IMG/VR virus record: IMGVR_UViG_3300028887_000099
Span: 21,888-85,887 of that record
Length of the DNA: 64,000 nucleotides
Direction: 5' to 3' (one strand)
DNA from: a virus
Lineage: Duplodnaviria; Caudoviricetes
A model generated the notes under the pieces. That model was not told the origin of the DNA and made no database searches. It was given only the letters and a program-made list of their open reading frames with translations. A program made the translations under genes and the position numbers. Below are positions 7,894-16,472 of the stretch, piece by piece (position 1 is the stretch's first letter; the number at the start of each line of letters is the position of its first letter).

Positions 7894-8419
7894 GGTTGGT
7901 CCTTTCTGCGCCTGTGCGCAAGCGTTGGTCGCTACCCATCTGATGTCGCCAGATTCTTAAGCCTTTTAGCGACGATAAGGCTCGCATTTCAGTCTTTCTC
8001 TCTCACTTTCTATATATATTATAGCACGAATTTTAAAATTTTTCAAAGTTTAAAAGAAAAAATTTAAAAATTTTAAAATTTGACAAAAAATTTCCAAATT
8101 TTGACAACACGCAGCTTATATTTCTCCTTATATTATAACATAAATTTTAAAAAATGTCAAATTTTTGCAGCTCTAGGGATTGTTTCAAACGCAGCTCAGG
8201 CGCAGCTCAGCTGCTATGAACGGGTGGCTTCGTTAAGTAAAACGCACCCGCGAATCTCATCGAGTGGAACGCTTGTGCTTCGGTTTACATAATATGGTGT
8301 TATGTCAACCTGCGGGCATAAGATTACAAATAGTTACAAAATTTGACTTTTTTAAAACTTGACATAAAATGGAATTTAGACGTGCACGTCTAAAACAACA
8401 TATAAAAAAAATCTGTCTA

Positions 8420-9076
8420 TTACCAGACAGATTTTTTCATTTTTTTATGTTGTGACATACACCGCGCGAAAATCTCTTTTTCGATTAGTACATCTTCAAG
8501 ACCTGTATGACTTTCAATAAAGTCATTATTTAAGGTGATGTACCGATATAAAATTTCGGCGGTCGCGCGTGGAGTACCGTTTTTCTTTAAATAATCATTG
8601 CGTGCACACCAACGAATGTATGTCGGTTGGCAACAAATAGTATCTTGTGCCATCTTCAAAGTATCCCACAAGGGAATGCCGTATGGAAGAAAATAACGTG
8701 TGCGCGACTTCGTCAAGTATCGAATAGTGTATGCGGTTGACCGATAATCAAAACGCGCATTGTGTGCAATGATTGCGCGCACGTTCCACTTCTCGCACAA
8801 TTCACGCACAATTTTACGCGCAGTATAAATAGATACAATTTTGCGCGTACCTTGCCGGATTTGCTCTTCATACATCGCGCGCTTTTCGGCGTAATAAGCG
8901 GTATCAAACAGGGCGCGGTCAGCACAAAAAACCTCATAAATAATGAGGCTAAAAGTTTCATAAATGCGCCCGTGCTTATCGACAATTGCTCCACCAATGT
9001 CATACATAATAGGGTCATCCAGAGAATTTGCCGTTTCAGTATCAAGTACCATATAATAGGAAATGCGCCTGTCCAT
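8420..9076 (-). CDS. DEDDh 3'-5' exonuclease family protein
   Basis: ExoI VLDTET, ExoII AHNARFD, ExoIII HTGLED. Confidence 0.85.
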   Translation of the reverse strand: MDRRISYYMVLDTETANSLDDPIMYDIGGAIVDKHGRIYETFSLIIYEVFCADRALFDTAYYAEKRAMYEEQIRQGTRKIVSIYTARKIVRELCEKWNVRAIIAHNARFDYRSTAYTIRYLTKSRTRYFLPYGIPLWDTLKMAQDTICCQPTYIRWCARNDYLKKNGTPRATAEILYRYITLNNDFIESHTGLEDVLIEKEIFARCMSQHKKMKKSVW

Positions 9077-9179
9077 ATCTAAGACCTCCTTTTAAGATAT
9101 ACTAAGTTTACCATAAAAAAGGAATAAAAGCAAGAGTAGTTTTTAGACGTTACACGTCTAAAATTAAGGGAAAGACGGA

Positions 9180-9461
9180 TTACTCCGTCTTTTCCTTTTT
9201 CTTGGCATCCGCCTTGGCCTTGCGCTCCGCTCGCTCCCGAAGCTTGTCAGAGTACTGCTCCCGGGCGGAAACATAATCGTCCTCGCCGGACTTGAGGATG
9301 GACACGGTCACGACCATGATGCCTTCCTCACCATCTTCGACCACAGGCAAATTGAGCTTGTTGGACTCAATATAACCCACGTCCTCACCGTGCTCTTCCA
9401 GAAGATTATAAATTGCCTCCAGATAACGAGCACGACACTTATTCGCAAGGGACAACTTCAT
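9180..9461 (-). CDS. hypothetical protein, paralog family B
   Basis: RBS AGGAGG before ATG 9461; GEDVG.IESN..N.P...DGEEG shared with 10700-10987. Confidence 0.75.
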   Translation of the reverse strand: MKLSLANKCRARYLEAIYNLLEEHGEDVGYIESNKLNLPVVEDGEEGIMVVTVSILKSGEDDYVSAREQYSDKLRERAERKAKADAKKKEKTE

Positions 9462-9591
9462 GAGAAACACCTCCTTAAACTGTACTTAAAAGATACCATA
9501 TTTTTTAAAATTTGTCAAGAAGTTTTTTTAGACGTAACACGTCTAAATTATTTTTTTATGAAAAGAGGACACTTTCGTGTCCTCTTTCGTT

Positions 9592-9969
9592 TTACTCCGC
9601 ACGCTTGTACGTGACCTTGGAGTGCTTGGAGTCAATCTTGCGCTTGCCCTTGACGATAGAATTGCCCATCGTCCGGACAGCAGAAGCGACCTGCGGAGCG
9701 GTCAGCCCAGTCTGCTCGGCGACCTCGTCAGCGGTGTACTCGTCGCCGTTCTCCTCAAAGAACTTGACGACCTTGGCGCGCCGGTCAGCAACCTCGGCGT
9801 TCTCCTTGCGCGGACGCTCCTTAGCCTTGGCGTTCTTGGCATCCATCGCGGCGATAAGCCCATGCGCCTTTTCAGCCATAGCCTTGGTATCCACACAGCC
9901 AGTGGGGTCATCGCTCTCAATCACGTCAATCAGATCGAGAACATTCACATAAAACTCGCGGGTAGTCAT
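9592..9969 (-). CDS. winged-helix protein, paralog family A
   Basis: YTADEVAEQTGLTAPQVASAVRTM HTH-like segment; KIDSKH motif shared with 12817. Confidence 0.75.
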   Translation of the reverse strand: MTTREFYVNVLDLIDVIESDDPTGCVDTKAMAEKAHGLIAAMDAKNAKAKERPRKENAEVADRRAKVVKFFEENGDEYTADEVAEQTGLTAPQVASAVRTMGNSIVKGKRKIDSKHSKVTYKRAE

Positions 9970-10116
9970 GGGGAACTCCTTTCATAATTGGCGTCGGTCG
10001 CCACCCTTTTTTGTTCCTTCCCTTGGAACAATTATAATATAACATATTTCTTTTTCTTTGTCAATGATTAATTTAGACGTTACACGTCTAAACTAATCAA
10101 TAAAAAAAATGCGCCG

Positions 10117-10596
10117 TTATGTCAACGGCGCGCAAGTGTAAGCAGAAATCTTTCCATTGTATTCTTTTGCCAACATTTGGCACTTTGCAGTTTGTTCTTT
10201 ACTCATACAGTAACAGTTGAAAATGTGCCATTTACCAAGAGTTTGGTAATTATTTGGAATTTTATAAACATCGGCAAGTTTCACATGAATGTATTCGGCA
10301 GAATTTTCATAAGGTATTGCCATTTCAATTTTCCATAATTTTTCTTTTTCTGTTTTTTGCTCTATCCATTTTACACAAAAAACACCGATAAAATTTGCAG
10401 TTGCTACAATTAGAATTTTTTCCCAAAGCGGTAAATCGCATACAGTATATACAATAACTACTGTATAAAGACCATATGCAATTGCATTTGCCAGAGCAGC
10501 GACAGTTTTACCACCTTTTACAGTAGCAATAGATTTTACAGTTTGGAAAATTACATTTGCAATATTTAGAACAACAAAAACCACCAACAATTTCAT
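10117..10596 (-). CDS. membrane protein (UPF0316/DUF5698-like, tentative)
   Basis: Three N-terminal hydrophobic helices followed by a soluble C-terminal domain. Confidence 0.6.
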   Translation of the reverse strand: MKLLVVFVVLNIANVIFQTVKSIATVKGGKTVAALANAIAYGLYTVVIVYTVCDLPLWEKILIVATANFIGVFCVKWIEQKTEKEKLWKIEMAIPYENSAEYIHVKLADVYKIPNNYQTLGKWHIFNCYCMSKEQTAKCQMLAKEYNGKISAYTCAPLT

Positions 10597-10699
10597 TTTC
10601 GGAAACTCCTTTCTAATTTCTATACATACTATAACATATATACTTTTTTTTGTAAAGAGTTTAGTTTAGACGTAACACGTCTAAAACTAAAAAGGTGGA

Positions 10700-14820: not shown

Positions 14821-15134
14821 ATTTTTGCCATCCCTTTTTCATATTTTTTTTGAGCTTGCTCAATTAATTTTAGGATTGTTTTGTTGGGTTGATGTCTATA
14901 AATCCAAGCTACTTGTTCTTTTCGAGGAATAAATCCAGTCACAAGCTTTTTTTTGTTTGCGCTCCAAACTAAAACTATACCACTATCCATAAAACAAAGC
15001 CAGCTTCCTTTTTTTTCACTATATCGTTCCCGCAATACTTCATTGCCTAAACCGCACATTGCGCTCAACAGTGCAAATCTTTCATTTCTATCTATCATGA
15101 TATGCCGCGAAACTTGCGAAGTTTTAATATTCAT
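14817..15134 (-). CDS. hypothetical protein
   Basis: First gene of a cassette, RBS AGGAAG. Confidence 0.65.
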   Translation of the reverse strand: MNIKTSQVSRHIMIDRNERFALLSAMCGLGNEVLRERYSEKKGSWLCFMDSGIVLVWSANKKKLVTGFIPRKEQVAWIYRHQPNKTILKLIEQAQKKYEKGMAKI

Positions 15135-15251
15135 TTTTATCTTCCTTTCTTTAAATTCTAATTATATTATACTCTTTTTCTTTTTTTTTGTCAATTATAT
15201 AGTTTAGACGTAACACGTCTAAATAAAAAATCCGGAAAAACTTTTTCCGGA

Positions 15252-15536
15252 TTAAGGTAGAAATTTTCTTTTTCCATTAATTTTCCAAGATAAAGGATTT
15301 GTTAATTTTATATAACAAAAGTCTTGTTTATCTTGAAAATTATTTTTACGTTTTGCCATAATCATTTTGATAATCAAAAATTGATATAATGGCATTTTTC
15401 CTAATTTCCATTCCCCTATATAGGAATTTTTTTCCCAATCAAATCGCATATCGCTTAACCAGCATAGCTTTACATATACGATTGTAAAAGGAAGCAGCCC
15501 CAAAAATAGGAAAAAAAGTATAACTCCTAAATTCAT
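15252..15536 (-). CDS. membrane-anchored hypothetical protein
   Basis: N-terminal hydrophobic helix; RBS AAGGAG. Confidence 0.6.
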   Translation of the reverse strand: MNLGVILFFLFLGLLPFTIVYVKLCWLSDMRFDWEKNSYIGEWKLGKMPLYQFLIIKMIMAKRKNNFQDKQDFCYIKLTNPLSWKINGKRKFLP

Positions 15537-15779
15537 TTATTTAGCTCCTTTTAATTTTGGGGAAGTAGTAGGTGGCTTTAAGTTTATCTTGTGGCTCTAT
15601 GTCGCACGTTTCTTATCCGTTCCTACTTTTACCTAATTTTCTTATTTCCCTTTCGGTACTTTGTCAATCTTGACTTCCCCTTTACGATATTATATTACCA
15701 CTTTTTTTGAAAATTGTCAAGAAACTTTTTAGACGTAACACGTCTAAGTCGCGCCTTTACGGCGCGCAGCTTCAATTTT

Positions 15780-15971
15780 TTATACAAATTTTGCAAGAAG
15801 AGCTTCGACACGAGCCGCAGCTTCAATTGTACAATCAATATGGAATTCAAAGCTTACTACATCATAGGTGGGCATAGCAACGCCAGGAATTTCTAAAAGT
15901 TTTTCCATAACTTTTTCGGATTCAAAAACAGTTGCAATATCTTCATCAATGTAGTAGCATAAAGTTTTCAT
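15780..15971 (-). CDS. hypothetical protein
   Basis: Own promoter and palindrome; RBS AAGGA. Confidence 0.65.
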   Translation of the reverse strand: MKTLCYYIDEDIATVFESEKVMEKLLEIPGVAMPTYDVVSFEFHIDCTIEAAARVEALLAKFV

Positions 15972-16089
15972 AAAATTCTTTCCTTTCTTAAAGTGGTTTT
16001 TTCTTTCTGTAAGTCTAATATACTACTTTCTTTGAAATATGTCAACTTTTGGTTTAGACGTAACACGTCTAAAAAAAAGAAGGGGAGGA

Positions 16090-16269
16090 TTACTCCTCCT
16101 CCTTCTCCTCGGGCTTGACCCCCCAGTAGCGCACATAGTAGCTAAGCCGCTCAGCGGCCTTAGCCTTGGCGCGCTCATAGGCGTCCGCGCCCTCGAAATG
16201 CTCCACCAGCTTAGAGCCACGGAACACATCCACCCCACGGGTGACATCGATAGTGATAGAAGTAGACAT
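16090..16269 (-). CDS. small hypothetical protein (59 aa, below the ORF-track cut-off)
   Basis: MSTSITIDVTRGVDVFRGSKLVEHFEGADAYERAKAKAAERLSYYVRYWGVKPEEKEE; RBS GGGGG; own promoter and palindrome. Confidence 0.7.
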   Translation of the reverse strand: MSTSITIDVTRGVDVFRGSKLVEHFEGADAYERAKAKAAERLSYYVRYWGVKPEEKEEE

Positions 16270-16472
16270 AATAACCCCCTGTAGGCGGCGACCCTATCGT
16301 TCGCTCACGCCCTCTTTGATGGTACCATTATACCACACCTGCCATTAGAGTCAAGACCCTATCTTAGACGTAACACGTCTAAGTTTGATGGTAACACGTC
16401 TAAATCATACTACTTTAGCACTTCATCGTGTTAAAGCATGAAAGTAAAAAAAGAGCGGAGATCTCTCTCCGC

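Follow-up and report, generated by a model that had tools for sequence, protein, structure and literature searches.

Why should a single 21-bp palindrome recur, at an almost constant distance, in front of one promoter after another in the early genes of a large phage? The question is raised by a 64,000-nucleotide stretch of DNA (hereafter the window; bases 21888–85887 of the 85.9-kb IMG/VR record IMGVR_UViG_3300028887_000099) from an uncultured gut or rumen phage of ~120 kb, in which an earlier note, made from the letters alone, had suggested either a master switch for a host-takeover module or an integron-like shuffling system. Comparison with related phages suggests that the palindrome is probably the operator of a phage-encoded early regulon. 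The candidate reader is a 164-amino-acid (aa) protein encoded by the gene that fills a slot at the head of the same block (16824–17318, minus strand; hereafter the slot gene), and on comparative grounds we give it an even chance of being that reader. Taken as a whole, a lineage-specific operator regulon with this restriction-endonuclease-fold protein as its likely factor is the reading towards which the evidence leans.

Helical phasing of the palindrome at early promoters

A search with TTTAGACGTNNNACGTCTAAA, allowing up to three mismatches, located 16 full copies of TTTAGACGT-N3-ACGTCTAAA in the window, at 9142–16383, against 0.03 expected from shuffles, and a looser scan added a 17th, defective copy with a 2-bp centre (8375–8394) and an isolated half-site (16396–16403). 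The full copies are confined to one ~8-kb early block on the minus strand; a scan of the rest of the 85.9-kb record, outside the window, returned no copy. Hairpin and T-run terminators stand upstream of most copies and promoters of the TTGACA-17-TGnTATAAT type follow them, with a spacer of 16–17 bp between the -35 and -10 hexamers and a TG-extended -10 in 12 of 16, whilst the edge of the palindrome lies 7 or 8 bp from the -35 hexamer in 16 of the 17 copies; the 17th closes the array and has no promoter downstream. Five other strong sigma-A-type promoters in the window (8160–8132, 8046–8018, 1408–1436, 2004–2032 and 17691–17719) are free of the motif. The array, its spacing and its absence from equally strong promoters elsewhere in the window had all been described in the earlier note, and each description held when measured.

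In IMG/VR, an exact scan located 60 loci with the motif on ~40 contigs, and 14 near-complete relatives of 89–139 kb carry 2–20 copies each (7–20 in 13 of the 14), in a single cluster per genome where positions were listed. Of 596 distinct copies compiled from related phages, 485 are flanked on one side by a good promoter. The distance from palindrome to -35 hexamer is quantised: 297 promoters have a gap of 6–9 bp (mean 7.7 bp), 104 of 16–20 bp (mean 17.3 bp), 41 of 26–30 bp (mean 27.8 bp), 18 of 36–41 bp (mean 38.9 bp) and 16 of 49–53 bp (mean 50.4 bp), with nine outside these five classes. The step of ~10–11 bp is one helical turn, five turns are covered, and the centre of the site, near -54 in the window, falls near -54, -64, -74, -85 and -96 in the relatives. 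A lineage with the variant TTAGACGA keeps the same period with an offset of +3 bp (gaps of 11, 22, 31–32 and 46 bp). The long gaps are filled by an A/T-rich, UP-element-like tract abutting the -35 hexamer, with a second element in some lineages. Such a fixed helical face speaks for a bound protein working with RNA polymerase, so that the proposal of a protein acting on the polymerase at each promoter, made from one genome, is upheld by helical-repeat spacing across 485 promoters of related phages; the comparison once suggested between shifting the site by 5 bp and by 10 bp likewise has its natural equivalent in these phased gap classes. Quantised spacing in hundreds of natural promoters also provides unusually clean data on face-of-helix control at promoters of Gram-positive type.

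Class I sites for CAP/CRP work only one turn apart (-61.5, -71.5, -82.5 and -92.5), through the carboxy-terminal domain of the polymerase alpha subunit (alpha-CTD), and the ladder seen here is of the same kind. CAP, however, is a host factor acting at weak promoters, whereas the promoters here are near consensus and the factor is probably phage-encoded. Some lineages have extra elements inserted in the gap that separates palindrome from -35 hexamer, namely a half-site TTAGACGTCAAAA in G003 (L025) and a second palindrome GTCAYNTTAYRTGAC in the G006–G010 group (L012, L032, L039 and L063), and these hint at a second regulator at a subset of promoters.

The core of the site is TTAGACG-N5-CGTCTAA, which is two-fold symmetric. 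Over the 485 sites the arms hold ~2 bits per position, values inflated by the picking of sites by pattern, and the three central bases hold ~0.3 bit. Amongst genomes with the canonical palindrome, one-sided single mismatches number 97 against seven symmetric double changes, which indicates that the sequence, not base pairing, is under constraint. Between lineages, both arms vary symmetrically (TTAGACGA/TCGTCTAA, TTAGATGT/ACATCTAA, TTAGACTT/AAGTCTAA and TTCGTACGT/ACGTACGAA; further operator variants are TTAGACGG and TTAGACGC), and symmetric variants are what a dimeric reader co-evolving with its many sites would give. Read along transcription, 11 copies in this genome have GTT as their central triplet, three have GTA, and ATT and ACA occur once each; in other genomes the centre is ATT, TAA, ACA or mixed, and the 21 copies of L208, a close relative of this array whose slot protein is 77% identical, vary in their centres. 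The earlier suggestion of a directional 7-bp core, as in a tyrosine-recombinase site, is therefore not supported, since the central 3 bp are unconstrained in relatives.

Co-variation of the slot gene with the palindrome

Palindrome-free relatives were reached with the sigma-like protein of the late operon (A4) as query, which fetched 80 loci, 59 of them well covered. Thirty-one of the 59 have the TTAGAC-type palindrome and 27 are palindrome-free with the same kind of sigma-A cassette array, in which the upstream elements are, for example, CACTTTA-N-TAAAGT with GCCCGGGCG, or AGTTAGTC-NN-GACTAACT. A blind association test over all clusters of open reading frames (ORFs) singled out the gene heading the minus-strand block. 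Its two clusters, u0a and Y191, can be aligned as one family with common motifs, and this family is present in 31 of 31 palindrome loci and in none of the 27 others, where M155 or M159 proteins occupy the slot. A phylogenetic tree of the sigma-like protein requires at least 14 changes in palindrome status and at least 14 in slot type, and independent pairs agree 10 to 0 (p ~0.002). At one locus alone, L188, a U-type gene is found without the TTAGAC palindrome, and there the variant palindrome TTCGTACGT is present.

The same pairing is found between phages that are otherwise nearly identical. L177, which lacks the palindrome, and L178, which has it, share a backbone of ~92–94% identity and cassette ORFs of 84–94% identity, whereas they are unrelated both in the slot gene and in the operator segments of the intergenic regions; the homology in one cassette begins between operator and promoter. 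In a tight clade of three palindrome-bearing and two palindrome-free genomes, with ~85–95% nucleotide identity in backbone and cassette ORFs, whole-genome comparison reduced the genuine gene sets particular to the palindrome genomes to two, namely the slot gene and a block of tail-fibre genes. In 28 of 28 loci the region upstream of the slot gene is free of palindromes, which places the gene outside the regulon it would control. One M159-type, palindrome-free phage retains a single perfect TTAGACGA palindrome (G020:C1:23083–23101), probably a relic of cassette exchange with palindrome-type relatives.

The slot family comprises 76 clusters, all metagenomic and unnamed, and has no Pfam domain. 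Across 23 sequences it conserves a D...ExK motif, with D47 and K62 invariant and E60 conserved in at least 90%. An AlphaFold2 model of the protein (pLDDT 92, pTM 0.86) gave VIA-align matches to NhoI (Z 8.4), the Eco15I N-domain (Z 6.2) and, with Z of 4–5.6, MspI, I-Ssp6803I, DpnI, HhaI, RecU and Hjc, and Foldseek probabilities of 0.9–0.95 for NhoI and Eco15I. Although a Z near 8 is at the level that the structure search rates as common, the match list consists nearly entirely of PD-(D/E)XK nucleases. The predicted structure places the protein in the PD-(D/E)XK restriction-endonuclease fold with its alpha/beta core. Enzymes of this fold typically read palindromes as dimers, and a small protein built on it would be a natural reader of a long palindrome; as the catalytic residues are intact, the predicted binder may also cut. 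The M155 proteins look like remote homologues of the slot family in profile alignment (hhalign E 2.7e-4 over 115 columns), whilst the hhalign match between the family and M159 is limited to the stretch around the catalytic motif.

In the mechanism we favour, the palindrome, placed on one helix face after one cassette's terminator and ahead of the following cassette's sigma-A-type promoter, would allow the 16 copies to be switched as a single early regulon. A dimer bound there would touch RNA polymerase via the alpha-CTD or sigma region 4, and the contact would hold or time early transcription, with early shut-off of the kind known for phi29 p4 at promoter A2c. As the core promoters are near consensus, such a contact more likely holds or times transcription than gives a needed activation, and the same core promoter behind two different operator modules, in L177 and L178, also marks the operator as a modulating add-on. 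Phi29 p4 binds as a dimer upstream of its promoters and, by one and the same contact with the alpha subunit, activates a weak late promoter and represses a strong early one by holding the polymerase. Repression via the alpha subunit at A2c was reportedly described by Monsalve and co-workers in 1996 (PNAS 93:8913, listed in PMC11806353). The likeness lies in a phased upstream site at near-consensus early promoters, whereas p4 is a small non-enzyme with few sites and the partner p6, and here there are an array of 16 cassettes and operator alleles. As to the direction of control, we rate repression or shut-off as somewhat likelier than activation, each at less than even odds. The module of terminator, operator and promoter doubles as a seam for gain, loss and exchange of cassettes between co-infecting relatives. 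The sites, their phasing, the symmetric variants of the lineages, the co-variation with the slot gene and the cassette seams are observed directly, whereas the identity of the binder, any cutting in addition to binding and the direction of control are inferred.

Several points weigh against this reading. The direction of control is not readable from sequence, and the co-varying slot gene and operator are physically adjacent, so that linkage or host adaptation could contribute to their association; the tail-fibre genes also differ between the genomes compared. Two slot subfamilies, only ~20% identical, both occur with the identical canonical palindrome, and a conserved catalytic D...ExK is more in keeping with an active nuclease than with a protein that only binds DNA. 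Finally, the winged-helix proteins of the array are classical candidates for operator binding, and were set aside only because they are present in palindrome-free relatives and vary in the recognition helix.

A bolder reading, which we hold to be less likely than not, is that a protein with a restriction-endonuclease fold and intact catalytic residues is, or doubles as, the master regulator of the entire early regulon of a lytic phage, docking next to RNA polymerase on a phased palindrome, and that operator–regulator pairs behave as interchangeable alleles ("early-region types") among near-identical backbones. If true, virulent phages would have in such alleles a kind of regulatory immunity or of incompatibility typing, and if the slot protein is the reader, near-identical phages could be told apart by early-region types that are exchangeable and are marked by their operator and regulator alleles. 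The phyletic approach taken here is applicable to other phage arrays of phased palindromes.

Competing explanations and known systems

The slot protein could instead act on the palindrome as a cleavage or nicking target, with breaks driving cassette exchange, recombination-dependent replication or superinfection exclusion, and with the tie to promoters secondary. Its conserved catalytic residues and restriction or homing endonuclease fold, the breakpoints of cassette gain, loss and transposition within the module, and the joint switching of operator type and slot gene all fit this account. It is not obvious, however, why a nuclease target should keep to one face of the helix with respect to the -35 hexamer through five turns; the sixteen self-sites would need protection, and no such mechanism was found; and the palindrome kept in the genome of the other type means that cross-type killing is not absolute. 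We judge it unlikely, if worth keeping in mind.

An operator could also be read by a host transcription factor that the phage exploits, in which case operator type, slot nuclease and tail fibres would all follow the host. A factor serving early genes has to be there as infection begins, and the tail-fibre genes differ between members of one clade with and without the palindrome and, likewise, between this phage and the nearest relative that has no palindrome. We rejected a host regulon, however, as an exact scan of 185,579 species genomes found the multi-copy motif mainly on short phage-like contigs carrying the array, and arrays on no other contigs, whilst five candidate host metagenome-assembled genomes (MAGs) had almost no copies besides the array (control counts 0–2). 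The short array-bearing contigs in MAGs look like binned phage fragments. The symmetric operator variants moreover differ between phage lineages, leaving the host explanation improbable. Outside such arrays, the form TTAGACGT(C/T)(C/G)(A/G)ACGTCTAA has four copies on one 333-kb Nomurabacteria contig (L071, L081 and L084), and single palindrome copies occur in other Candidate Phyla Radiation (CPR) and Bdellovibrionales MAGs (L068, L078 and L074). Single matches are at about the level of chance (~9 estimated for 18 fixed bases in 596 Gb), whereas four on one contig exceed it; no regulator was found amongst the genes neighbouring the Nomurabacteria copies.

Another phage protein might bind the palindrome, a winged-helix protein or a family-B protein with its basic tail, leaving the slot gene as a linked marker only. 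The winged-helix, family-B, phrog_20187 exonuclease-like and HAD phosphatase proteins are conserved in all palindrome relatives, and the winged-helix model (pLDDT 92) has a MarR/PadR-like domain; lying within the array, the winged-helix genes would be autoregulated. As specific binders these four kinds of protein were rejected, being equally present in palindrome-free relatives, and the recognition helix of the winged-helix proteins varies among phages that share an identical palindrome. Whole-genome comparison revealed no other regulator-like gene specific to the palindrome genomes, and we see little prospect of such a binder. In the winged-helix alignment A2 (12817–13173 and 9592–9969) it is the N-terminus that is most conserved (MT.REF ... 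LDA.N.KR, with T2 and R4 invariant), not the recognition helix, and the function of these proteins may lie in a protein contact made by the N-terminus.

A nucleic-acid hairpin acting with no sequence-specific protein, as a back-up terminator, an RNA processing site or an N4-type cruciform promoter element, is very improbable. A 9-bp stem with a 3-nt loop could form, and the palindromes were picked up in the terminator scan, yet the 97 uncompensated against seven symmetric changes show conservation of sequence and not of pairing, no T-run follows the palindrome in the sense direction, a true terminator already precedes it, and phasing to the -35 hexamer is a property of double-stranded DNA. A hairpin promoter for a virion RNA polymerase, of the N4 or crAss type, was rejected separately: no giant virion RNA polymerase came to light, the two giant proteins matching tape-measure and minor-tail families, and the sigma-A elements are conserved.

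The last alternative starts from the behaviour of the cassettes. When arrays were split at their palindromes and the units clustered, unit order proved conserved overall, with insertions, deletions, replacements and transpositions of units. Unit 27 is placed differently in G006 and G010; a unit that G006 has and G008 lacks is delimited by one module's promoter and the following module's palindrome, the deletion junction lying between promoter and palindrome; and this window differs from L208 by one transposed unit and has fewer units. The cassette idea of the earlier note is thus borne out, with units gained, lost and transposed between relatives and breakpoints in the operator/promoter module, and its appeal to duplicated gene families stands in part: family-B proteins are present as a pair, as are phrog_20187 proteins, which have a weak exonuclease match, but of the three winged-helix proteins claimed only two are clear (118 and 125 aa, 33% identical), the third (98 aa) being doubtful. 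These changes need only homologous or short-homology recombination between the repeated modules. Integron attC sites are defined by structure, are variable in sequence and depend on an integrase, and integron cassettes have no promoters of their own. The phage array is like an integron array in its tandem single-gene units, separated by palindromes and variable in content, and unlike it in its sequence-conserved site, in having a promoter and terminator in every unit and in the lack of an integrase match among the proteins scanned, and the integron-like mechanism suggested earlier is not supported. A site for site-specific recombination, of tyrosine-recombinase or attC type, can be dismissed almost outright despite the cassette-level rearrangements and the uniformly oriented centre in this genome, since the centre is unconstrained in relatives, the close one included, neither the proteins scanned (a subset of the ORFs of the record) nor the differential gene sets yielded a match to a recombinase family, promoter and terminator are present in each cassette, and breakpoints fall between operator and promoter or inside the promoter instead of at a fixed crossover point.

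An operator regulon with the slot protein as candidate reader has partial counterparts in two described systems. In the large Bacillus siphophage SPbeta, one 15-bp element, SPBRE (SPbeta repeated element), is found at ~10 promoter regions and bound by MrpR/YopR, a phage master repressor on an inactive tyrosine-recombinase fold (PMC10516654). Both systems have a short repeated element in many promoter regions and a single phage regulator, here a candidate, on the fold of a DNA enzyme. The present site is nevertheless treated as a functional analogue only; it is a 21-bp perfect palindrome, apparently of different sequence, and it lies in a dense array of early cassettes where SPBRE serves lysogeny, no integrase or repressor match having been found among the proteins scanned; nor did these proteins yield a match to the MrpR family or a recombinase fold. 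The candidate factor differs from MrpR in its restriction-endonuclease fold with intact catalytic residues, and strict helical phasing does not feature in the portions of the SPBRE description consulted (PMC10516654). In T4-type phages, composite modules of terminator and early promoter, the PeSLs (promoter-early stem-loops), flank small and mostly unknown genes in plastic regions, where they serve as points of cassette insertion, deletion and swapping between related phages (PMC2839356, PMC4122927). The arrays share with them a terminator and early-promoter module flanking small ORFs, with breakpoints of indels and replacements inside it; by its published summary, a PeSL is a composite of terminator and promoter, whereas in the arrays a separate, invariant 21-bp palindrome stands between the two, in phase with the -35 hexamer and linked with a gene specific to the lineage. 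The phage itself is siphovirus-like, with Gram-positive-type sigma-A promoters and TG-extended -10 elements, unlike the T4-type myoviruses.

A repeated operator at phage promoters is thus already a known kind of system, as are cassette seams, whilst the five-turn phasing, the symmetric operator alleles, the swapping of operator and slot-gene pairs among near-identical backbones and the restriction-enzyme-fold candidate regulator are new. Large uncultured gut and rumen phages hold most of their unknown small genes in such arrays, and the array suggests how these phages trade early genes; one operator gating the block, together with a named candidate reader, gives a handle on the timing of the first minutes of infection. 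Should the slot protein prove to be the reader, it would be the second case, after MrpR, of a DNA-enzyme fold running a phage regulon.

Cassettes of the block and neighbouring sequences

The early-gene block (8375–17318, minus strand) consists of the head, or slot, operon followed by 16 palindrome-tagged promoter cassettes; all its genes lie on the minus strand in the standard code, and it adjoins the plus-strand late operon, in which TAG is recoded as glutamine. In the head operon, the slot gene u0a (16824–17318), encoding the PD-(D/E)XK restriction-endonuclease-like candidate palindrome factor, precedes a 98-aa gene of unassigned function (16473–16769) with a terminator after it (16473–16454). 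The lone half-site TTAGACGT (16396–16403) then lies 13 bp upstream of the first full palindrome.

Palindrome 1 (16363–16383, gap 8 bp; promoter 16354–16327) serves a 59-aa gene (16090–16269), palindrome 2 (16053–16073, gap 7 bp; promoter 16045–16017) a 63-aa gene (15780–15971), and palindrome 3 (15728–15748, gap 7 bp; promoter 15720–15692) a 94-aa gene (15252–15536) that is reached through a leader of ~150 nt (15537–15690, minus strand). This leader is unusually long and could be a regulatory leader or a small RNA. Two genes, of 105 aa (14817–15134) and 59 aa (14641–14820), follow palindrome 4 (15203–15223, gap 8 bp; promoter 15194–15166), and a 66-aa gene (14319–14519) follows palindrome 5 (14595–14615, gap 7 bp; promoter 14587–14559). 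Behind palindrome 6 (14252–14272, gap 7 bp; promoter 14244–14217) is a HAD-type phosphatase-like gene of 153 aa (13722–14183, phrog_415). Palindrome 7 (13679–13699, gap 7 bp) has a promoter with weaker hexamers, TTGATT/TACAGT (13671–13643), before genes of 40 aa (13490–13612) and 53 aa (13327–13488). The two clear winged-helix proteins are encoded behind palindrome 8 (13291–13311, gap 8 bp; promoter 13282–13254; 12817–13173, 118 aa) and palindrome 14 (10072–10092, gap 7 bp; promoter 10064–10036; 9592–9969, 125 aa), and the two family-B proteins behind palindrome 12 (11056–11076, gap 7 bp; promoter 11048–11020; 10700–10987, 95 aa) and palindrome 15 (9527–9547, gap 8 bp; promoter 9518–9490; 9180–9461, 93 aa). 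Likewise, the phrog_20187 exonuclease-like genes follow palindrome 11 (12071–12091, gap 8 bp; promoter 12062–12034; 11100–11972, 290 aa) and palindrome 16 (9142–9162, gap 8 bp; promoter 9133–9105; 8420–9076, 218 aa). Palindrome 9 (12741–12761, gap 8 bp; promoter 12732–12704) precedes an 81-aa gene (12428–12673), and palindrome 13 (10665–10685, gap 8 bp; promoter 10656–10628) a 159-aa gene (10117–10596). The terminal defective copy (8375–8394) comes after the last terminator.

Palindrome 10 (12394–12414; promoter 12385–12357) is followed by no credible ORF across ~12100–12356. Its cassette (12100–12356, minus strand) has palindrome, promoter and terminator, is 77% conserved in the related array of L208, on a par with coding units, and has no match in Rfam; it is a candidate for an early non-coding RNA. 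A wider Rfam scan of 6000–18000 returned nothing credible, with one sub-threshold CsrC match on a terminator, and in Pfam and PHROGs scans the array proteins were mostly without match. In several cassettes the loop of the terminator hairpin holds the TAA stop codon (GGAG-TAA-TCC pattern; 16084–16102, 10695–10715, 9171–9192 and 11095–11115, minus strand), so that gene end and terminator are fused.

Beyond the block, long plus-strand ORFs at 17746–44687 stay open only when TAG codes for an amino acid, and the 2521-aa tape-measure protein alone contains 84 TAG codons; recoding is a feature of the late virion operon, the early and most replication genes being without it. Of six same-array relatives tested for their code, three recode TAG and three are standard (G003, G006 and G008). 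PHROGs matches include terminase, portal, tape measure and tail proteins and, in the other arm, a DnaE-type polymerase, NrdD/G, RecJ and primase; the 2521-aa protein matches tape-measure families and a 1559-aa protein minor-tail families. YonB and YonD_N families among the virion genes of a close relative suggest a distant kinship with SPbeta-like phages. The promoters and strong Shine-Dalgarno sites are of Gram-positive type, and fragments of the array are included in MAGs of Clostridia, Acutalibacteraceae and Ruminococcus that come from the guts of ruminants and other animals. Against GenBank phages, megablast of the array found no close relative, and tblastn gave one weak match for the sigma-like protein and none for the slot protein; in the literature, a search for the half-site brought up primers and unrelated matches and nothing else. 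No paper or annotated phage carrying the palindrome was found, in keeping with the earlier statement that it was not recognised as a known operator.

The first gene of the late operon (17746–19062, plus strand) encodes the 438-aa sigma-like protein, which has a weak match to a sigma-factor PHROG and conserved C-terminal cysteines (CxxC...CxxC), is kept in all relatives and always adjoins the early array; its own strong sigma-A promoter (17691–17719) is without a palindrome. Beyond the other end of the array, the two consensus sigma-A promoters at 8160–8132 and 8046–8018 (minus strand), also palindrome-free, are directed into 7450–8067, where the sole long ORF is on the opposite strand, and may be a source of antisense or non-coding transcripts. 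Where the slot gene and the sigma-like gene diverge, the DNA between them contains iteron-like direct repeats (17440–17500 and 17620–17680), consisting of TTTTGTAAC-type units and three copies of about TTCTGTAGAATTTGG, and TTTGTAAC-type units recur just beyond the far end of the array (8320–8350); the iteron-like repeats could be an origin or the sites of a second regulator.

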